Origin: a virus
Strand: one strand, 5' to 3'
UHGV virus genome: UHGV-0213320
DNA length: 39,655 nucleotides
Part shown: positions 2,234 to 39,655 of the stretch, in pieces
Layout: every line of letters begins with the position of its first letter
Numbering within the stretch: the first letter of the stretch is position 1
Position numbers and translations under genes: made by a program
Notes under the pieces: generated by a model
The model's database searches: none
What the model was told of the DNA's origin: nothing
What the model saw: only the letters and a program-made list of their open reading frames with translations

Positions 2234-2488
2234 TTGGAAGAAATAAAAGCATATAAACCGAAATGCTGCAGCAAAGCATATATTACAAAACGTGCATGTG
2301 TGGAACATGAAAAAAGATGTTTGTGGAATCCAGACAATGAAGCTTGTCATACCTGCGGAAAAAGGGAAGTGGTGGATGGAGAGGAAAAACGCTGGTATTG
2401 TCCTGTAAGGGATAGGCTAATTGGTATTTTCGAAGCCGGAAATGAGATGTTACCAGTAAGTCATTGTGAGGATTGGGAACCAAATTAA
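2234..2488 (+). CDS. Cysteine-rich putative zinc-finger protein
   Basis: 84 aa with CC...C..H...C and CHTCGK...WYCP cysteine clusters. Confidence 0.4.
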   Translation: MEEIKAYKPKCCSKAYITKRACVEHEKRCLWNPDNEACHTCGKREVVDGEEKRWYCPVRDRLIGIFEAGNEMLPVSHCEDWEPN

Positions 2489-2557
2489 GAATTGATAGAG
2501 AAAGGATGGGGCATTTATGATACACGCTATATGCCCATTTAGTGGAGGAAGATAACC

Positions 2558-3520
2558 ATGGGATTAGAGGTATTTGACCATTACGAATGTGACGGTCAGA
2601 TGGAGATAGAGGACATTGCCCCGGAACGGCGGCTCACCCATCTGTCCCTGTTCAGCGGAATCGGGGGCCTGGATCTGGCTGCGGAATGGGCAGGATTTGA
2701 AAGTGTAGGACAATGTGAGTTTGCGGATTATCCTGCCAAGGTGCTGGAAAAACACTGGCCGGATGTGGAAAGGTGGAGAGATATACATGAGTTACACGCA
2801 GATGAGTTTATTCGCAGGACAGGAATCAGGGCAGGAGAACTTACCTGTATTTCAGGGGGCTTCCCCTGCCAGCCGCACTCGACTGCTGGACTGCGTAAGG
2901 CATCTAGTGATGAACGTGACCTGTGGCCGGAGTACCGGCGTGTCATTAGCGAAATTAAGCCGAGATGGGTTGTGGCTGAGAATGTACGGGGACTGCTGTC
3001 AAGCGAGGATGGACGGTTCTTTCGAGGAATACTCAGGGACTTTGCCGACCTGGGGTATGATGTTGGATGGTGTTGTTACCGGGCTGCCGATGTCGGAGCG
3101 GTACATCCCAGAGAGAGGGTTGGAATTATTGCCCACCTTAACATGCTCAGATACATGGAGCCAAAGGCTGAAATCAACGGAATGGAATGGGGAGAACAAG
3201 CACAGCATGACAATTACGCGAGCACTGATGCCGACATTGACGGCAAGCGCATGGAAAGGCGCATGCAGAAGCCAATACAGGGGAAACCGGAATGGTCACA
3301 TGACCAGTCCGTTGAATGCACTGAGGACTGGGAAAGACAGTCCAATATATTTGAACCCAAGCTACTGCGAAATTATCATGGGGTTCCCGGTGCGGTGGAC
3401 AGAATTAAGTGCCTCGGAAACGCAGTAGTGCCACAGCAGTTCTATCCGATTTTTAAGGGGATAGCGGAAATAGAACTGGAAAGCAAAACACTATATCGAT
3501 GTAAAGAAGGTGCAAAATGA
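2558..3520 (+). CDS. DNA (cytosine-5)-methyltransferase (orphan, phage-encoded)
   Basis: Motif I LFSGIGGLDLA, motif IV GGFPCQPHS (PCQ), motif VI ENVRGL, motif X GNAVVPQ. Strong RBS GGAGGAAG. Visibly higher GC than surrounding genes. Confidence 0.9.
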   Translation: MGLEVFDHYECDGQMEIEDIAPERRLTHLSLFSGIGGLDLAAEWAGFESVGQCEFADYPAKVLEKHWPDVERWRDIHELHADEFIRRTGIRAGELTCISGGFPCQPHSTAGLRKASSDERDLWPEYRRVISEIKPRWVVAENVRGLLSSEDGRFFRGILRDFADLGYDVGWCCYRAADVGAVHPRERVGIIAHLNMLRYMEPKAEINGMEWGEQAQHDNYASTDADIDGKRMERRMQKPIQGKPEWSHDQSVECTEDWERQSNIFEPKLLRNYHGVPGAVDRIKCLGNAVVPQQFYPIFKGIAEIELESKTLYRCKEGAK

Positions 3521-3750
3521 ATCTTAGTCCCACAATGATGCAGGTTACAGAACAAATGGAATTGCACGGTGAACTGATAAGATATCCTGGAGGATTTTGG
3601 TCTTGGCGAGACGTAGAAATCAAACGCAAGATTCCTGCATGGTATTGTGACGTGAAAACTCTTAGAGCACTTGGAAAAAGAGGGATTGTCAATCTTGATG
3701 AAACCAAGAAAATTTGTAAGCTAAAAACGCGATTTGGCAAAAGGAACTAA
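3517..3750 (+). CDS. Hypothetical protein
   Basis: 77-aa ORF coupled (ATGA overlap) to the methyltransferase stop. Confidence 0.35.
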   Translation: MNLSPTMMQVTEQMELHGELIRYPGGFWSWRDVEIKRKIPAWYCDVKTLRALGKRGIVNLDETKKICKLKTRFGKRN

Positions 3751-4555
3751 ACAAAACTATCTTAATGCCATACGAAGATTGCTGACAGAGATAAGCACAA
3801 AATCACTGGACCAGATGGATACCACTGATATTGATTGGTATTTATCGCGGTATGAAATTAGAAATGTATCTGCCGGGGGAAAGAAAAACCAGCCTAGTAC
3901 CTATAATAACGAGCGCAGATTTCTGTCAGCATTCTTCGCATGGATGCGCCTTGAAAAGCTTATTACAGATAATCCGATAGAGTCTATACCAGCTAAAAAA
4001 GTACCCATTAAACCAATTGATTACTACAGCCCAGAAGAATCTGCAAGGTTAAGGGATGCGTGCAAAAATATCCGTGAGAGAGCCTTGCTGGAGGTGCTTC
4101 GAAGTACTGGGGCCAGGATAGGGGAGATTGCAGAAATAACCCTGGACCAGATAGACATGAGAACAGGAGATGTATTAATTCAGGGGGAAAAAGGCGGTAG
4201 ATACCGTACTATATATTTGGATGATGATGCAAGATATTATTATGGCCTATACTTAGACAATCGGACAGATGATTGCCCATATATGTTTCCGCGTTCAAGG
4301 AAACCATATGGGAAAATGACTACTTGCGGTTTTCGAGCCATAATAAAATCCATAGGAAAAAGGGCAGGACTTACATGCAGGGTTTATCCGCACAAATCCA
4401 GAAAAACATTAGGAATGAATCTTAGAAATCACGGTGTAGAGATAGGAATTATACAGGAAATTTTTGGACATGCAAGTTCGGAAGTAACAATGAAATTTTA
4501 TGCTCAGACTGATAATAGAAGACTGCGTAGCATTAGGGAAAGGGTGGCAGTATAG
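3734..4555 (+). CDS. Small tyrosine site-specific recombinase (XerC/D- or FimB/E-like), probable TTG start
   Basis: Catalytic signature: RTGARIGEI (Arg I), HKSRKT (HxxR), GHASSEVTMKFY (catalytic Tyr). No N-terminal arm-binding domain (273 aa). The ORF overlaps the upstream gene, so the start is uncertain. Confidence 0.8.
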   Translation: MAKGTKQNYLNAIRRLLTEISTKSLDQMDTTDIDWYLSRYEIRNVSAGGKKNQPSTYNNERRFLSAFFAWMRLEKLITDNPIESIPAKKVPIKPIDYYSPEESARLRDACKNIRERALLEVLRSTGARIGEIAEITLDQIDMRTGDVLIQGEKGGRYRTIYLDDDARYYYGLYLDNRTDDCPYMFPRSRKPYGKMTTCGFRAIIKSIGKRAGLTCRVYPHKSRKTLGMNLRNHGVEIGIIQEIFGHASSEVTMKFYAQTDNRRLRSIRERVAV

Positions 4556-4560
4556 AAAGG

Positions 4561-4869
4561 ATGGACATGAGAACCAGATATAAAAACTACAGCGACTATG
4601 GTATTACTGATGATGAAGCTAAACGCATAAAAGAATACTGCCAGAACGCCATCGTAGAAGATAAGCTAACATTGTTCCAGTGTGCTATATCCTCGGCTCC
4701 TGGCCTGGAGGTGGAGATATACGAAAGCCTTGTAAGTAATATCGGATATGATAGGCTGAGCAAGCGAAAGAATATACCAATCAAACGGGATGACTTTTAC
4801 GGGTATCAAAGAAAAACGCTAGATGAATATAGGCGGTTGATGACATTGTTTGGGAGGTGGAAAGGATGA
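4561..4869 (+). CDS. Hypothetical protein
   Basis: 102-aa ORF with RBS GAAAGG 3 nt before the ATG. Confidence 0.4.
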   Translation: MDMRTRYKNYSDYGITDDEAKRIKEYCQNAIVEDKLTLFQCAISSAPGLEVEIYESLVSNIGYDRLSKRKNIPIKRDDFYGYQRKTLDEYRRLMTLFGRWKG

Positions 4870-5705
4870 CAATTAGTCATATAAAGGCAAGCGAGTTATT
4901 AAGAATTGGTGATAGCATCCGCAACCTAAGAAAAAATAAGGGATGGACGCAAAAGAAGCTTGCTATTGAAAGCGGAATTCACGAAGTACAGATACGCAGA
5001 TATGAAAATAATCATTCACTTCCTAGAGATGAACAATTGCAAAAACTTGCAACTGCTTTAGGGGTAGAAAACGATTTTTTCACACGAATGGAGAATATAT
5101 ATATGGCAGGAATTAATGATTACATAAGAATAGGGAAAAGAATAAAACAAGTAAGGATAAAATCAGGAATTTCACAAAAGGATATGGCAAAACGTCTCGG
5201 AATACCAGAATCCTCATGGTCAAATTATGAAAATGAAATTCGTGAACCAGGAATAAACTTGATATATTCGTTTTGTAAAGAAATGGGTATAACGATAGAT
5301 GAATTGATACGGATGGAGATTATGACAATTGGAGAAAACATTAAGAAATATCGCGAAAAAAAAGGATTGACACAAAAGGAATTGGGTGCAGCTTTAGGAT
5401 TAGCAGAAATTACAATTAGACAATACGAAAGCAACAAGCGTGAACCAAAATATGAAATCCTTTTTTCTATTGCAGATGCACTAAACATATCCATTGACGA
5501 TTTAATGAATATTGACACTGGAAAACGGATAAAAGAAGAAAGAGTAAAAGCAAAACTAACACAAGAAAAATTGGCCCAAAATGCGGAAATTTCTGTTTTC
5601 ACCTTACAGAAATATGAATCTGGGGACCGGAATCCTAAAATAGAACAATTAAAAAAAATAGCAAATGCTTTAGGAATATCAATTACTCAACTTAAGATTA
5701 TATAA
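4866..5705 (+). CDS. Transcriptional regulator made of four tandem HTH-XRE (Cro/C1-type) domains; candidate late-gene activator
   Basis: Four ~65-aa repeats each match the HTH_3 pattern (e.g. GWTQKKLAIESGIHEVQIRRYENN, GISQKDMAKRLGIPESSWSNYEN, GLTQKELGAALGLAEITIRQYESN, KLTQEKLAQNAEISVFTLQKYESG). RBS GGGAGGTGG before ATG 4866. Located immediately upstream of terS, the position where late activators usually sit. Confidence 0.8.
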   Translation: MTISHIKASELLRIGDSIRNLRKNKGWTQKKLAIESGIHEVQIRRYENNHSLPRDEQLQKLATALGVENDFFTRMENIYMAGINDYIRIGKRIKQVRIKSGISQKDMAKRLGIPESSWSNYENEIREPGINLIYSFCKEMGITIDELIRMEIMTIGENIKKYREKKGLTQKELGAALGLAEITIRQYESNKREPKYEILFSIADALNISIDDLMNIDTGKRIKEERVKAKLTQEKLAQNAEISVFTLQKYESGDRNPKIEQLKKIANALGISITQLKII

Positions 5706-5746
5706 AAAATGTGGGGACGATTTACATTACATGCGCATGGTAAAAT
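5706..5746 (+). promoter_or_regulatory. Candidate late promoter: 17-nt motif AAAATGTGGGGACGATT + 18-nt spacer + TAAAAT
   Basis: An identical 17-mer recurs at 15921-15937 with a 17-nt spacer and TAAAAT. Sits between the 4xHTH gene and terS, i.e. at the start of the late operon. Confidence 0.45.
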
Positions 5747-5789
5747 TAGTATAGGACTATTATGCCGTGTGAAGCACAAAGAATAAGGG

Positions 5790-6215
5790 GTGGTGATTGT
5801 GGCTTCCAGATTAACAGATAAACAGAAAAAGAAAATAATAGCTGATTATGTGGAATATGGAAGCTATCGTGCCACAGCAAAAAAATTCGGTGTTTCAGAT
5901 AACACAGTAAAAAACATATGCGCAAAAAGTGCAGATATTGCGCAGAAGTGCGCACAAAAAAAAGAACAGAACACAGCCGATATGTTGGCATATATGGATT
6001 CCAGGAAAGAACAAGCACAGGGTATTATTGATAAATATCTTGAAAAGCTGGCGGACCCGCATAAACTAGAAAATGCTACTATCTCCCAAATTGCAACAGC
6101 GATGGGGATAGTAGTTGATAAATTTATGGATAATACAAAAAAAGGAGAAAATGCAGAAGGAGTAACCATTTTGAATGATATACCAAAGCCGGGAAAGGGG
6201 AATGGTGATGCATGA
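5790..6215 (+). CDS. terS: Terminase small subunit
   Basis: 141 aa, N-terminal HTH-like segment (YRATAKKFGVSDNTVKN). Immediately upstream of and overlapping terL. GTG start (5790 or 5799) after AAGGGG. Confidence 0.65.
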   Translation: MVIVASRLTDKQKKKIIADYVEYGSYRATAKKFGVSDNTVKNICAKSADIAQKCAQKKEQNTADMLAYMDSRKEQAQGIIDKYLEKLADPHKLENATISQIATAMGIVVDKFMDNTKKGENAEGVTILNDIPKPGKGNGDA

Positions 6216-7465
6216 GTGACATAATAAATCTGACTGATGTAATCGCCCCTTCCTTTTATGACGTTCACTGGGATATCCTGGACGGAAAGCATACATATTA
6301 TGACCTCTATGGCGGGCGCGGCTCCACGAAGTCCTCTTTCATGTCCGTGGAAATTATACTGGGGATGATGCAGGACGAAAAGGACGGAGTTTTCAGCAAT
6401 TCGGCAGTATTTCGTAAGGTAGGAAACACCTTACGGGAATCTGTATTTGAACAAATTGCATGGGCGATTGATGCACTGGGGGCCAATGACCTGTGGGCGT
6501 CCAGTGTTAGCCCCATGCAGTATGTGTATAAACCCACTGGCCAGAAAATCATCTTCCGAGGACTGGACAAGGCGAAGAAAACGAAATCTATCAAGACGAG
6601 CCGAGGATATTTTAAATACCTCTGGTTCGAGGAATTGGACGAGTTTGCCGGGATTGAGGAAATCAGAACAGTGCAGCAGTCCGTCCTTCGTGGCGGGAGT
6701 AAATTTGTGGTGTTCAAGTCCTTCAACCCTCCAATCAGCCGGAGCAACTGGGCGAATGTGTACGTCAACGAGCCAAGAGAGGACAGCTGCCGGCACAAGA
6801 GCGACTATACCACAGTGCCGGAGGAATGGCTGGGAGAACAGTTTATAGCAGACGCCGAACATCTGAAAGCCACCAATCCAAGGGCATATGAACATGAATA
6901 CATGGGCAATCCCGTTGGACTGGGAACGAATATTTTTGATATGTTGGATGTGCGTACAATAACAGACGAAGAAATCAGCCGCATGGAGCGTATCTATCAA
7001 GGGCAAGACTGGGGCTGGTATCCTGACCCGAAAGCCTTTATCCGGGCGGCGTACATCCATAGCACTGAAACAATCTATCTGTTGGACGAGTTGGGCGGCT
7101 GTAAAATCCGTAACAGCCAAATGGCAGAGGATATAAAGGAAAAGGGCTATGATGATTATGAAATCCGCTGCGGCGCTGATGAACAGGAAAGCATAGTTGA
7201 CTTTAGGGATGCTGGACTTCCGGCCAGACAGGCCAATGTTGGGCCGGGTAGTGTGAAATATACCTTTGAATGGCTTCAGTGCCGGACAATCGTTATAGAC
7301 CCGGCCAGAACGCCGAGAGCATACAAGGAAATCATAGAGTATGAACATGAAGTAGACAGCAATGGGGAAGTGATTGCAGACTATCCAGACCACAATAACC
7401 ACTGGATAGACGCTCTGCGGTATGCTACAAGCCCACTGTCAATGAGGAGAGGAAACAGCGCATGA
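6212..7465 (+). CDS. terL: Terminase large subunit
   Basis: Walker A motif YGGRGSTKS, 417 aa, packaging-module position. Higher local GC. Confidence 0.9.
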   Translation: MSDIINLTDVIAPSFYDVHWDILDGKHTYYDLYGGRGSTKSSFMSVEIILGMMQDEKDGVFSNSAVFRKVGNTLRESVFEQIAWAIDALGANDLWASSVSPMQYVYKPTGQKIIFRGLDKAKKTKSIKTSRGYFKYLWFEELDEFAGIEEIRTVQQSVLRGGSKFVVFKSFNPPISRSNWANVYVNEPREDSCRHKSDYTTVPEEWLGEQFIADAEHLKATNPRAYEHEYMGNPVGLGTNIFDMLDVRTITDEEISRMERIYQGQDWGWYPDPKAFIRAAYIHSTETIYLLDELGGCKIRNSQMAEDIKEKGYDDYEIRCGADEQESIVDFRDAGLPARQANVGPGSVKYTFEWLQCRTIVIDPARTPRAYKEIIEYEHEVDSNGEVIADYPDHNNHWIDALRYATSPLSMRRGNSA

Positions 7466-14802: not shown

Positions 14803-14830
14803 AAAAGGCAGGATTAACTTCCTGCCTTTT
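14803..14830. terminator. Bidirectional rho-independent terminator (AAAAGGCAGGA-ttaac-TTCCTGCCTTTTT)
   Basis: Near-perfect 10-11 bp GC-containing stem with an A-run on one side and a T-run on the other, between convergent genes. Confidence 0.7.
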
Positions 14831-15791
14831 TATGATGAATTTGTACCGGACGCGTCAAAGCGTCTAGAATATCCCATCCTCTGTATATGCGGCTATGTAC
14901 CCTTGTATAAGGAACTCCGTATTTTCTGCACCAATTTGCTAGAGAGTTTGTAACGCCGTTTATTGTGAACATTAAATTCCTATTTGTATTATTTCCTTGT
15001 TGAACATCTGTAGCCAATCTACAATTTGATGGCTCATATCCCTTGGCATTATCAATTCTGTCAATAGATAAATTTTCTTCATACCCATTATTTAAAGCCC
15101 ATTTTTTAAATTTCTTATACTCTTTCCATTCTTGGCAAACAGCTATTCCTTTTTCTCCATACAAATAGTACGACTTGTGTTTTGGGCTATAGCAACGTAA
15201 CATCATATCATGCCATATACGATAAATCCGAGTATTTGTATCTCCGTGAGTAGTATTTCTTTCTATGGCAACCTCCCTGTTATAACAGCCACATGATTTT
15301 GTATGCCCACTAATTAAGTTTTGTTGATGAACAATTACCGAGTTTCCACAGTTGCATTTACATTCCCATAAGGTTTGTTTTCCGTTGCTTTTTCCGGCAT
15401 ACCGTATGGCTACTAAACGCCCAAAACGCTTCCCTGAAATATCATCCACTTTGGGAGTTCTGCAATTTTTACAGCATTTCTCGTAAGGAGATTTTAATGC
15501 GAACGCACTTGTTATAAATCGCGTTCCGCAGTCGCATGCACATTCGTATTGAACGTATGATTTTTTCATAGGAAGTTTTTTTAATATAGTCAATTTCCCT
15601 ATTTTTCTTCCTGATAGATTTTCCTTGTTTATGCAGCCGCATGATTTTGTTTTTCCGTCACGCAGATTCCCAGAATAGATTTTTCGCTCTGTTCCACATT
15701 GGCAGCGACATAAATAATACTGATTACCAAGGTATTCTAGGACTGTCCACATTCCAAACTTTTGACCTGTTAAATCAATTCTTTTTGTCAT
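14814..15791 (-). CDS. HNH(HNH_3)-like homing-endonuclease-type protein with three N-terminal zinc-ribbon repeats
   Basis: Start at the second Met (MTKRIDL) after RBS GGAAGGGG. Three repeats of L[ST]G[QRK][KR][FI]G.L.[VI]L...(Y/W).C.C.CG...........SCGC. C-terminal IYRIWHDMMLRC...YGEKGIAVCQEW...LSIDRIDNAKGYEPSNCRLAT..QQGNN matches the HNH_3/AP2-like module. Opposite strand to the structural genes. Confidence 0.7.
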   Translation of the reverse strand: MTKRIDLTGQKFGMWTVLEYLGNQYYLCRCQCGTERKIYSGNLRDGKTKSCGCINKENLSGRKIGKLTILKKLPMKKSYVQYECACDCGTRFITSAFALKSPYEKCCKNCRTPKVDDISGKRFGRLVAIRYAGKSNGKQTLWECKCNCGNSVIVHQQNLISGHTKSCGCYNREVAIERNTTHGDTNTRIYRIWHDMMLRCYSPKHKSYYLYGEKGIAVCQEWKEYKKFKKWALNNGYEENLSIDRIDNAKGYEPSNCRLATDVQQGNNTNRNLMFTINGVTNSLANWCRKYGVPYTRVHSRIYRGWDILDALTRPVQIHHKKAGS

Positions 15792-15864
15792 TAAGTAACC
15801 CCTTCCTATATTCGATATTATACCATAAGAACGAGAAACAATCAATTGGTATATAGTTAGAAAG

Positions 15865-29852: not shown

Positions 29853-30578
29853 ATGAATAACATAGAAAATATCCAAGAATATATACCTACTGTGTATGTT
29901 AATGACTCTGAGCCAGATTTGGATGAGACAAACTTAAACAAAACAGAACAGGCAATAAAACGGGTAACCGATGCAGCCAATAAAGCAATTGATGCATTAA
30001 AGCAACTGGACCGGGAGAAGTTAGCGTTATCTGCTATATCTAACGTATTATCTGATGCTACAGATAAGGTTCCATCATTGGCTTTAGCTAATACAATGCA
30101 GCTCGCGATTAATGACTTAAATACCAATTTGGGCGCGGAATTAGTGACTGGCGATATGTTATCCTATGCTCTTAGAATGAGTAGAGGATTTTACGTCATA
30201 CGAACTGACAATACGACTGCCAATACACCTAAAGACTATATGTCTGGATATATAGTCAAAAGATTTGACAATCCAAATCAGATAACAATTGTACTTTTTG
30301 AGTTAGGTAAAACCAAACCATATTATAACAGCTATAATGGTAGTGCTTGGTCTGGATGGGTTGCTGGTTTACAAGACTCCGATTTGGTCATAAATAGTCC
30401 CATAAAAAAGACAAAAGTAGCCCTGGAAAATGACAGGCTCTTGTTTTGGGTTTATACTGATGGAGATGCGATGATGAATGGTTATCGGGTAGACTTTAAT
30501 GGTGCGGAAAAGCGCATTTATTACGGAAAAATAACCAATGGCATTTACAGTAATATTGGTGGTACTACCTTAACGTAA
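29853..30578 (+). CDS. Tail fibre / receptor-binding protein with switchable C-terminal domain
   Basis: 241 aa, strong RBS AAGGAGG. C-terminal ~145 aa homologous to the inverted promoterless cassette at 30583-30990. The homology begins exactly at a 12-bp inverted repeat. Confidence 0.6.
   Translation: MNNIENIQEYIPTVYVNDSEPDLDETNLNKTEQAIKRVTDAANKAIDALKQLDREKLALSAISNVLSDATDKVPSLALANTMQLAINDLNTNLGAELVTGDMLSYALRMSRGFYVIRTDNTTANTPKDYMSGYIVKRFDNPNQITIVLFELGKTKPYYNSYNGSAWSGWVAGLQDSDLVINSPIKKTKVALENDRLLFWVYTDGDAMMNGYRVDFNGAEKRIYYGKITNGIYSNIGGTTLT
30119..30138 (+). repeat. Left inverted repeat of candidate invertible segment (AAATACCAATTTGGGCGCGG)
   Basis: Matches, in inverted orientation, AAATAGCAATTTAGCAGCGC at 30981-31000 (12-bp core with 1 mismatch). 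In the same codon phase in both ORFs. Confidence 0.5.
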
Positions 30579-30582
30579 TTGA

Positions 30583-31000
30583 TTATTTGATGTTACGAGA
30601 CACATCAAATGTAATATAGCCTTTATCCACCCCATCTACAAAAATCTGTACATAGTTTTGGGTATCATTAAGTTTGTTGACATACAAGGTCACTGCTTTA
30701 CCAGCGGATACTCCTGTGGTTTTGACCGCACTGGCAAAATCCGCGTCTTGAATAAAAGTGCTCCACCCAATCCAGTTGGTCGCCGAAGGCTTTCGGTTGG
30801 TATATACCCTGTTGGATGTGCTATCGTACAATACTATTGCAATATCATTACCCCGGCGGATAATCATCCCCTCCGAGTAAGTTGTAGGAGTATCAGATGT
30901 CTGTGACCCGGTACGTACATTACTAATCCCTTGAGGCGCTGACGCTGCATAAGTCAATATGCTGCCGACCACATCCGATTGCGCTGCTAAATTGCTATTT
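30583..31000 (-). other. Silent inverted alternative tail-fibre C-terminal cassette (Sv'-like) with right inverted repeat
   Basis: The minus-strand ORF lacks an RBS or native N-terminus (its 5' end reads through the antisense of gene 31034). Residues NLAAQSDVVGSILTYAASAPQG...WIGW...QDAD... align with NLGAELVTGDMLSYALRMSRG...WSGW...QDSD... of ORF 29853. Confidence 0.55.
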
Positions 31001-32368: not shown

Positions 32369-32372
32369 AAAT

Positions 32373-32394
32373 ATGCAACACGAAATGCAACACG
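32373..32394 (+). repeat. Direct repeats ATGCAACACG x2 (second pair at 32569-32588)
   Basis: Four copies of the 10-mer in two tandem pairs ~175 bp apart, in the lysin-integrase intergenic region. Candidate integrase arm-type sites. Confidence 0.45.
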
Positions 32395-32455
32395 GAGCCT
32401 ACAAACCGCATAAAACCGTTGTATTTTACGGGTCCGATTCCCGTCAGCAGCTTTT

Positions 32456-32505
32456 TCTTAAAACCTTGTAGATACGTAGAAAACAACGTATTTGCAAGGT
32501 TTTTT
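32456..32505. terminator. Bidirectional terminator hairpin (AAAACCTTGtagATACG...CGTATttgCAAGGTTTTTT)
   Basis: ~14-bp imperfect stem with an A-run on the 5' side and a T-run on the 3' side, between convergent lysin and integrase genes. Confidence 0.55.
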
Positions 32506-32568
32506 CATGTTTTTGAATAGCACTTCCTCCGTCTGTCACGGAGGAAATAATTATAATATTTAGGATAT

Positions 32569-32588
32569 ATGCAACACGATGCAACACG
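32569..32588 (+). repeat. Second tandem pair of ATGCAACACG repeats
   Basis: See 32373-32394. Confidence 0.45.
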
Positions 32589-32605
32589 GAAAATATGCTA
32601 TTCTA

Positions 32606-33676
32606 TCACATAATAAACTTTTCAAAGTGTTTATTGATTTTTTTATTCTGCCGGACGGATTCCAGGTCAATCACATTCCTGTATACAGTTTTCATGATAT
32701 TGTCACTGGCCCATCCTCCCCGCTGCAATATATATTGGTCTGGTACACCTATGGCGTGCATAATGGATGCAGCATAATGCCGGAGGTCGTGAAAGCGAAA
32801 ATGCGGTACATCAATCTTTTTAAGCACCCGCCCAAATCTATGTGTGATATAATCCGGGTTCATGTCAACCAGCTTCCCTTTTTTGCCAGATATCCGGTCA
32901 ATTACAAAGGCTGGCATTTCTACGTCCCGTGTGCTGTCATCCGTCTTTGGCTGCTTGATATACCATTGATTGTCTGGTCCCTTGACCATATTGTCTCTTA
33001 CATGGATAATACGACCTTCTACATTTTTATCAGTAAGGGCGCTTATCTCTCCGCGTCTGAGTGGGCCAAATGCAGCCAGTAACACGGCTATCTCTAAATC
33101 TGTACCTTTGATAGCGTCTAACAGCTTTTTAATATCATTGTCATTGGGGCAGTATAAATCGGGGCGTTTTTTCTGTGGAAGCTTTACCTTTAAGGTTAAA
33201 TCAGGCGCAAACATTTCCAATGATGCGGATAACAGGCCATAGGCATTTCTAACTGTCTTGGGAGACAGTTGTTTTCCTGCCAAATCACTTACCCATATCT
33301 GTACAGATGGATTAGATAGCTCTGAGAGCCGTTTACGCCCAAATACGCCGTCAAAATACTGCCTTTGCATACCAACATACCCTCTAAGCGTAGAAGGGCT
33401 TAAAACTCCTTTTTTGACGCTCAAATAACGTTCGATAGCTTGACTCACTGTTATATCTTCGTCCTCTTCCTCTTCCGGTACGTTGTATTGCTCTATAGGC
33501 TTGTCCTTCATGTCTAATTTCCATCTGGTAGCCATCTCCTTTGCCTCTTTACGTGATGGAGCAACAAAGCTTTTGTAATGCCGTTTTCCTTTATCATCTG
33601 TATACAGATACACTTGCACTCTGACATTTCCAGACGGCAGTACTCCTTTTTTCTTTTTCGGGGCTTTTGTAGTCAT
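32606..33676 (-). CDS. int: Tyrosine integrase (phage integrase family)
   Basis: Start MTTKAPKKKKG after RBS GGAGGAAAG. N-terminal SAM-like/arm domain, catalytic RRGEISAL (Arg), HRFGRVL / HDLRHYAAS (HxxR), GGWASDNIMKTVYRNV (Tyr). 356 aa. Confidence 0.9.
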   Translation of the reverse strand: MTTKAPKKKKGVLPSGNVRVQVYLYTDDKGKRHYKSFVAPSRKEAKEMATRWKLDMKDKPIEQYNVPEEEEDEDITVSQAIERYLSVKKGVLSPSTLRGYVGMQRQYFDGVFGRKRLSELSNPSVQIWVSDLAGKQLSPKTVRNAYGLLSASLEMFAPDLTLKVKLPQKKRPDLYCPNDNDIKKLLDAIKGTDLEIAVLLAAFGPLRRGEISALTDKNVEGRIIHVRDNMVKGPDNQWYIKQPKTDDSTRDVEMPAFVIDRISGKKGKLVDMNPDYITHRFGRVLKKIDVPHFRFHDLRHYAASIMHAIGVPDQYILQRGGWASDNIMKTVYRNVIDLESVRQNKKINKHFEKFIM

Positions 33677-33842
33677 TTTTCTTTCCTCCTTCAATTGATT
33701 TTCCTGAAAATAGGTATAAAAAATACAGCTCCGCAAATATCTTGCAAAGCCGCCCCGAAGATGGTACAATATAAGTGCGAATTATAGTGCATATCTTCGG
33801 GTATGTAGGCCGGTTCCTGTTGGCGCAGGGGCCGGTTTTATT

Positions 33843-38958: not shown

Positions 38959-39643
38959 CTTATACGAAAAGGTCCGTTCTGTCCCAGATAGCGCCAAGAA
39001 AACCATTAAGGGAGGCCGTATAAGCGGTATGACCGATATTAACCCCATGTGGCGCATAAAAGTCCTTACTGAGCAGTTCGGGCCATGTGGGATAGGATGG
39101 TACTACATCCCAACGAATAAGTGGTTAGAAACAGCGGGTAATGAGATAGCAGCTTTTGTAGATATCGAATTATACATAAAGGTTGATGGAGAGTGGTCTA
39201 AACCAATCTCAGGAAACGGCGGGAGCAAGTTTACATCAAAGGAGAAGTCTGGAATATATGTATCTGACGAATGTTACAAGATGGCAACCACAGATGCTAT
39301 ATCGGTAGCATGCAAGCTGCTTGGGATTGGCGCTGATGTTTATTGGGATTCAGACCGGACTAAATACAGCAACGAACAAATTCCAGAATCAAAAAATGAA
39401 AAAATTTCAAAAGAAAAGAAGCTAACCGAGGAGCAGGTAAATGATTTGATAGCAGAGTGTGATAGGACTGGTAAACATTGGAGGGCCATCTGCTCTCTGT
39501 ATGCTGTAGAAAAATTTAGTGATATGGTTGAATCTCAGTATAGAGATTGTATTAAAAGGTTCAAGTCCACCCCAGACAAACCCTCTAACGAGAATCCTGC
39601 CCCTCCAGATAATATGCAGGATAGTGGACTTCCCTGGAATTAA
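38945..39643 (+). CDS. Rad52-like single-strand annealing protein (Sak/DUF1071-type)
   Basis: Pattern KGGRISGMTDINPMWRIKVLTEQFGPCGIGWYY resembles the Rad52/Sak signature (GG.R.S....... FG..G.GW). Early-region position. Confidence 0.55.
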   Translation: MGNLDLYEKVRSVPDSAKKTIKGGRISGMTDINPMWRIKVLTEQFGPCGIGWYYIPTNKWLETAGNEIAAFVDIELYIKVDGEWSKPISGNGGSKFTSKEKSGIYVSDECYKMATTDAISVACKLLGIGADVYWDSDRTKYSNEQIPESKNEKISKEKKLTEEQVNDLIAECDRTGKHWRAICSLYAVEKFSDMVESQYRDCIKRFKSTPDKPSNENPAPPDNMQDSGLPWN

Positions 39644-39655
39644 AGAGGTGTTTAT

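Follow-up and report, generated by a model that had tools for sequence, protein, structure and literature searches.

The early region of this temperate phage genome encodes a small tyrosine recombinase in addition to the prophage integrase, and the question it raises is whether this protein catalyzes the tail-fiber inversion located at 30.1-31.0 kb in the same genome. The initial annotation described the ORF as a minimal XerC/FimB-like enzyme and considered it the most plausible catalyst, which, if true, would name the enzyme of a host-range switch in common human-gut Lachnospiraceae phages. Our analysis of the window, by which we mean the whole 39,655-bp stretch of DNA, favors a different explanation, to which we assign a probability of roughly 0.6: the ORF is a stump left by a deletion and probably does not flip the fiber in this genome, and its intact relatives are a dispensable family that may serve as a trans-acting invertase. 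As for the switch, it is genuine and occurs widely; the window's copy of its candidate enzyme is broken, and the link between the family and the switch is loose.

Genome organization around the recombinase ORF

The window represents the entire genome of a temperate phage in circularly permuted form. Its final bases, AAAGAGGTGTTTAT (39640-39655), when joined to the ATG at position 1, restore a ribosome binding site (RBS) and start codon that are split across the two ends, indicating a circular genome that was opened at a gene start. The lysogeny module includes the integrase, an ImmA-like peptidase, and a CI-type repressor. Early genes span the window ends and include an HNH nuclease (1-630), a DUF6291 protein, and a C5-methyltransferase, after which the gene order is the 77-aa ORF, the recombinase ORF, the 102-aa ORF, a four-HTH protein, the small and large terminase subunits, the portal, and the structural genes (Table 1). 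As annotated initially, the prophage integrase is a separate gene and the methyltransferase is an orphan upstream of the recombinase, with the 77-aa ORF lying between the two. Members of the Lachnospiraceae, among them Enterocloster bolteae, E. citroniae, and Murimonas, are the source of the homologues. In close relatives, the 102-aa gene is found directly downstream of the recombinase, while in a ~58%-identical clade it is directly upstream. Next to it, the four tandem Cro/C1-type HTH domains of the four-HTH protein all reside within a single protein, and its gene (4857-5705) constitutes an insertion between the 102-aa gene and terS in comparison with L003/L004. Variants of this gene occupy the same spot in other relatives.

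Table 1. Positions of the principal features within the window (the slash marks the deletion junction).
Feature	Position	Strand	Remarks
C5-cytosine DNA methyltransferase	2558..3520	+	PF00145, E 2e-40; no endonuclease gene adjacent
77-aa ORF, function not assigned	3517..3750	+	overlaps recombinase ORF by 17 nt, other frame
Deletion junction	3722..3725		A-run, GCTAAA/AACGCGAT; mapped against L025
5'-truncated tyrosine recombinase ORF	3734..4555	+	273 codons from TTG; corresponds to residues 76-348 of the 348-aa family
102-aa protein, function not assigned	4561..4869	+	conserved neighbor of recombinase family
Tail-fiber gene	29853..30578	+	constant codons 1-88, then crossover core, then expressed variable C-terminal cassette
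Left crossover core	30119..30131	+	AAATACCAATTTG; two mismatches to lineage consensus AAATAGCAATTTA, one within central 4 nt
Silent alternative fiber C-terminal cassette	30583..30987	-	35% identical to expressed cassette, E 2e-14
Right crossover core	30988..31000	-	AAATAGCAATTTA (consensus); inverted orientation
Prophage integrase	32606..33769	-	387 aa; SAM_3 + Phage_integrase; only other recombinase in window

The ORF encodes a generic XerA/XerD-like recombinase

The ORF call, the Pfam matches, and an alignment to archaeal XerA and E. coli XerD all bear out a 273-aa tyrosine recombinase ORF with the R, HxxR, and Y residues. Pfam returned Phage_integrase (PF00589) with an E value of 6e-29 and Phage_int_SAM_4 with an E value of 1e-8, while the C-terminal catalytic domain carries the tyrosine recombinase superfamily motif R-K-H-x-x-R-H/W-Y, with catalytic R128, K153, H220-x-x-R223, H246, and Y256 all present. 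The best sequence and fold matches were 4a8e, 5hxy, and 1a0p, and the structural matches were as generic as those from sequence. The reported absence of an arm-binding domain applies to the family as a whole, but the window copy is additionally missing part of the core-binding four-helix (SAM-like) domain, which is complete in full-length relatives; the SAM_4 alignment of the window ORF begins only at profile position 15.

The more specific labels did not hold. In searches with Fim-type invertase profiles, the scores were 37 bits for NF007370 (cutoff 221) and 29 bits for NF007371 (cutoff 222), so the FimB-like designation is not sustained, and the window gene is far from the invertible segment rather than adjacent to it, as is characteristic of the ~200-aa FimB/FimE enzymes. 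The dimer-resolution Xer alternative, which had also been raised, likewise scored far below the NCBIfam equivalog cutoffs: 98-102 bits vs. 329.6 for XerD, 90-92 vs. 335 for XerC, and 148-149 vs. 220 for XerA. A B. subtilis-type dif sequence had no match at ≤3 mismatches anywhere in the window, a search which a divergent site would escape, and closely spaced inverted repeats of ≥14 nt were absent from 2400-6300, a region from which the native upstream sequence has been deleted. Thus, the family resembles XerA, XerC, and XerD in having a core-binding and a catalytic domain with no arm-binding domain, but differs from them in its 68-aa N-terminal extension, its phage location, its low equivalog scores, and the lack of any dif-like site found nearby. 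Overall, the protein is a generic XerA/XerD-like, armless recombinase that is distinct from the prophage integrase.

The window copy is truncated by a deletion

While the ORF and its catalytic motifs were confirmed, the notion of a complete minimal recombinase proved to be a misreading of a deletion-truncated gene. Among the best 120 of 450 homologues, nearly all are 345-348 aa (a few were called at 382), and because these cover the whole query, the difference in length corresponds to ~75 further residues at the N-terminus. Homology to the full-length relatives begins at nt 3722-3725, right after an in-frame TAA. By blastn, window 3722-4869 matches L003 1625-2773 at 95.9% identity, and the L003 gene starts at 1413. 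The other side of the junction could be placed using contig 120920 (L025): window 3492-3725 corresponds to L025 8312-8545, the counterpart of the 77-aa gene, and window 3723-4869 corresponds to L025 10215-11361, which is the recombinase interior. As these two segments abut in the window and are separated in L025 by 1,669 bp that are absent from the window, a single deletion must have removed the intervening DNA. The final codons of the 77-aa ORF were rewritten in the process. We also considered a frameshift or fusion in which this upstream ORF would be the missing N-terminus, and rejected it, as the ORF is unrelated to the N-terminus of the family and has a separate gene in L025 as its homologue.

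The deletion eliminated the conserved leader, a strong GAGGAGG RBS, the ATG, and 71 codons. At the protein level, this amounts to a conserved two-helix extension at the N-terminus (residues 1-68), together with helix A of the core-binding domain. The extension is conserved across relatives of 58-100% identity, and an AlphaFold (AF2) model of the full-length protein (mean pLDDT 82.7) places helices at residues 3-18, 25-39, and 52-72 upstream of residue 76. By alignment, the modeled helix 52-72 is the counterpart of XerD helix A in the core-binding domain, and position 6 of the NCBIfam XerD profile falls at residue 69 of the full-length protein. No Shine-Dalgarno sequence precedes the TTG at 3734. 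From these comparisons, the window ORF is shown to be the remnant of a 348-codon XerD/XerA-type gene following a 1.67-kb deletion. The deletion joined the end of the 77-aa gene to the recombinase at about codon 72, leaving a complete catalytic domain behind a TTG that has no Shine-Dalgarno sequence, and the resulting stump is probably untranslated or inactive.

Similar events appear to have occurred elsewhere, as we found three independent 5' truncations in total. In contig 106577 (L027), the junction lies near residue 55 behind an N6-methyltransferase-like gene, and in L005 (P0003) it lies near residue 57 behind a reverse-transcriptase module; the third is that of the window. Three independent losses of the 5' end indicate that the recombinase gene is dispensable and that its 5' end is a recurrent mosaic breakpoint. 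All three truncated variants have a TTG start in common and thus retain the same 273-codon ORF, which could therefore be a tolerated short form. In addition, the window ORF is uninterrupted and shares 97% identity with the full-length genes; it may thus be translated through coupling to the 77-aa ORF that it overlaps and may retain some activity. Along with the intact catalytic residues, these features would be compatible with the 273-aa protein being a complete and active minimal invertase of the 30.1-31.0 kb segment, or a functional isoform initiated at TTG76. However, with the leader, Shine-Dalgarno sequence, ATG, conserved extension, and helix A all missing, the window copy is unlikely to be an active catalyst. 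Separately, the module found directly upstream of the truncated copy in L005 (200-1628) contains an RVT_1 reverse-transcriptase gene.

The tail-fiber inverton is genuine and widespread

The tail-fiber inversion described for 30.1-31.0 kb is a real feature, as relatives of the phage carry the segment in both orientations. The flanks of L041/L043 and L044 are collinear at 98-99.8% identity, whereas a 488-bp segment between them lies the opposite way round (90-96% identity) with 13-nt overlaps at both of its ends. In 12 IMG/VR relatives, fiber residues 1-92 are essentially identical and the sequences beyond ...NDLNSNL are unrelated; the 13-nt core AAATAGCAATTTA sits at this divergence point and has an inverted copy 475-1,050 nt downstream. 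Another 73 loci, located around a baseplate gene, were added to the analysis. The core is kept to the nucleotide in fiber alleles that are merely 42-45% identical, and related cores (..AGTGATTT, ..AGTAATTT, and ..AGCAATAT) were found in more distant phages. In L061, both core copies have changed in concert to AAATTCCAATTTA (AG>TC). Fiber invertons recur widely across this group of phages (window 30119-31000 and loci L034-L119). Three contigs terminate 41-42 nt beyond the core, which might reflect a k=55 assembly graph of a sample containing both orientations.

The core can be described as a small dyad, TAAAT-NNNN-ATTTA, with LNS(N/D)L as its translation. Its arms are conserved, while the central 4 nt vary among phages and agree within a phage, which is the expected signature of a crossover region. 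The window departs from this pattern, since its two cores are mismatched centrally (ACCA vs. AGCA). A central core mismatch normally blocks strand exchange by tyrosine recombinases, Cre, FLP, and lambda Int among them. Furthermore, a search of 5.8 billion proteins for the silent cassette of the window in its flipped and fused form gave only one exact copy, which was unfused. Both observations count against an active 273-aa enzyme, whereas contig 106577, which is also truncated, retains perfectly matched cores. Taken together with the missing 5' elements, we regard it as improbable that the 273-aa protein is a working invertase; the window copy probably does not flip the fiber segment in its own genome. 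As a separate matter, a correlation between recombinase integrity and core integrity was uninformative, given the matched cores of contig 106577 and the mismatched cores of some phages having an intact recombinase.

One additional property of the cassettes was evident. At its C-terminal end, the silent cassette of the window carries a shared module of ~55 residues (..SAVKTTGVSAGKAV.LYVNKLNDTQNYVQ.FVDGVDKGYITFDVSRNIK; proteins P0130-P0135), which is joined to many different cassette bodies and found with at least three distinct constant N-termini.

Candidate enzymes for the fiber inversion

With the window copy a stump, the candidates for inverting the segment in this lineage are the intact family members, the integrase, and recombinases from outside the phage. 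A serine invertase was rejected as the catalyst because the window encodes none: Pfam searches of the ORFs tested were negative for serine recombinases, and the best tblastn match to Hin had an E value of 0.025. The close relatives of the window also encode no serine recombinase. The initial assignment of the invertase role was correct to the extent that the ORF is the only non-integrase recombinase of the window and that no serine invertase exists to compete with it. It falters in that the copy is truncated, its cores are mismatched, and phages devoid of the recombinase have the switch as well.

For the intact 348-aa family, the distribution is suggestive. Recombinase and inverton occur together in at least 13 close contigs as well as in four more distant lineages (L084/L168, L114/L172, L116/L175, and L113/L256), and Int and the family are the sole recombinases of the close lineage. 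Where intact, the gene is a dispensable accessory recombinase with a 102-aa partner gene, located just upstream of the terminase genes, and its likeliest job would be to act in trans upon the TAAAT-NNNN-ATTTA fiber cores and thereby swap the receptor-binding tip. We hold this trans activity to be a tentative proposition, at somewhat less than even odds. Based upon these genomic comparisons, the family is the best phage-encoded candidate invertase in the window's lineage, and a recombinase of the host or a co-resident prophage is a serious rival.

According to this rival explanation, the inverting recombinase comes from outside the phage, and the 348-aa family would do something else, such as resolving replicon multimers or using some other site. 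It is conceivable at odds only just below those of trans activity by the family, and a number of observations are in its favor. The family gene never adjoins the segment, as the distance from the recombinase (3.7 kb) to the inverton is ~13 kb or 26 kb around the 39.7-kb circle and relatives share this arrangement. Similarly built invertons are also present in phages without any family member. Dulem virus 35 (complete, 45,197 bp) has a fiber gene with a reverse cassette and a 12-nt core pair, and its integrase is its only tyrosine recombinase. Similarly, a long-repeat phage group has an inverton with 33-40-nt repeats, serine integrases, and cassettes that occur in opposite orientations; tyrosine recombinases are absent from ~86% of one such genome, including the early and pre-terminase regions, and the group keeps the 102-aa gene, terS, and terL with no recombinase beside them. 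However, repeats of 33-40 nt could recombine by another route, whereas the 13-bp cores of the window's lineage are too short for homologous recombination. The existence of such switches in phages lacking the family nonetheless means that we can only infer a role for the family as the fiber invertase.

The occurrence of homologues outside the inverton phages is also compatible with an external recombinase. Clostridium phage phiCs5676-1 encodes a 54% homologue at the same genomic position and has no obvious inverton; the candidate for one was discarded, as it consisted of only a chance-level 11-nt repeat. In Terrisporobacter phage TPELB_ph1, we also searched next to a 32% homologue and saw no convincing inverton in the AT-rich sequence there. 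Relatives at 28-32% identity adjoin lysis genes, including one in a ParM-carrying phage. On the other hand, no lox/dif-like site was found near the gene, and, as stated above, the close lineage has the family as its sole recombinase besides Int.

Of the recombinase genes, that of the prophage integrase lies closest to the segment, at a distance of 1.6 kb in the circular form. It is also intact, and Dulem virus 35 has an integrase alone, so a second function as the invertase might be envisioned. The integrases of inverton phages are, however, 88-96%, 55%, or ~37-41% identical, undetectably similar (Dulem), or even 529-aa serine enzymes, while the core stays almost unchanged. This variation in type and sequence against a nearly constant core argues against Int as the invertase. 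The presumed attP region contains ATGCAACACG repeats and nothing core-like. Accordingly, the integrase was largely rejected for this role, which we rate as highly improbable. The four ATGCAACACG repeats, arranged as two pairs between the endolysin and integrase genes (32370-32600), are probably arm-type integrase binding sites of the presumed attP.

Comparison with known inversion systems

The design of the fiber switch, with its constant N-terminus, invertible alternative C-termini, and host-range switching, is like that of the Mu Gin, P1 Cin, and p15B Min systems. In the Gin/Cin/Min systems, the gene of a small serine invertase adjoins the segment, and inversion involves 26-bp sites and an enhancer. 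Unlike Gin, Cin, Hin, and Min, the window has no serine recombinase. Among the tyrosine recombinases, Rci of R64 acts at short asymmetric sites within the C-terminal coding region of an adhesin, recombines inverted sites only, and has sites of which only one side is conserved. In contrast to the window, rci adjoins a multi-segment shufflon on a plasmid, a comparison made by description.

The closest parallels are from Bifidobacterium prophages. Their Rin shufflon has an XerD-like tyrosine invertase beside several cassettes and 11-bp sites (Mavrich et al. 2018, PMC6109161). By description, the window is like Rin in being a temperate phage of a Gram-positive gut bacterium with an armless XerD-like recombinase apart from the integrase, and in combining a constant receptor-binding-protein N-terminus and alternative C-terminal cassettes with a short crossover site within the coding sequence. 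It is unlike Rin, where rin flanks several cassettes, in that it has one silent cassette and a candidate recombinase that is 13-26 kb away and truncated. The second bifidophage inversion (689b-1 / Bb423phi2) involves a single ~500-bp segment with an 8-bp site, a structural-gene 3' end, a small opposing gene, and no flanking recombinase, and a trans-acting invertase was proposed for it (PMC6109161). The window shares the single segment, the very short site, and the lack of a recombinase alongside, and it differs in its core motif, its sequences, and the phylum of its host; for the bifidophage system, no particular enzyme was put forward as the invertase. In favor of an external recombinase, this second inversion is also a precedent for a phage inversion that has no recombinase gene at its side. 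Should the intact family prove to be the invertase, it would be one of the rare phage tyrosine invertases that act in trans; otherwise, these phages would rely upon an outside recombinase for their host-range variation. Either outcome bears upon the prediction of phage host range in the gut. For the window copy, a role as fiber invertase appears unlikely, whereas for the intact family it is unproven and still plausible.

A conserved two-hairpin leader precedes intact family members

Directly upstream of intact family members is a conserved two-hairpin leader (L003 1240-1412, L001 7660-7760, L275 44730-44800, and ~35 other loci), which is absent from the window. Stem 1 has the loop CACCCGCCAAGAUG (or CCCCGACCAAAGUU) and compensatory changes in 8 of its 9 pairs, while stem 2 has an AUUAUA loop that is presented upon 17 different stems with G-U pairs. 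The leader is also present in phiCs5676-1, and in Dulem virus 35 stem 1 precedes a 102-aa-like gene. There was no Rfam match to the leader. We considered the hairpins as a lox/dif-like DNA site and rejected this, because the loops are conserved yet variable in length and the stems covary and contain G-U pairs, all of which suggests an RNA rather than a DNA site. Therefore, the leader is a candidate for a new cis-regulatory RNA.

The most extended version of our interpretation would hold that the intact 348-aa family is a trans-acting tyrosine invertase of the 14-bp dyad core, encoded 13-26 kb away at the head of the packaging operon, that the two-hairpin RNA leader gates its expression, and that the window is a natural knock-out with a frozen, drifting switch. 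As a complete scenario, we consider this doubtful.

Additional features of the window and its relatives

Two further observations concern the structural and packaging genes. Within the head/tail block, the opposite strand encodes a 343-aa ORF that matched no Pfam family (14814-15845, - strand). Low GC content (0.35) and a reversed GC skew there make it a likely moron. It also contains a copy of the fiber core with one mismatch (AAATAGGAATTTA, 14973-14985), which is at the level expected by chance. In L415 (7826-9926, contig 030403) and L418, the large-terminase gene, which is 83-88% identical to that of the window, is interrupted by ~850 bp that contain a 174-aa ORF; a homing endonuclease, an intron, or an intein may have inserted there.
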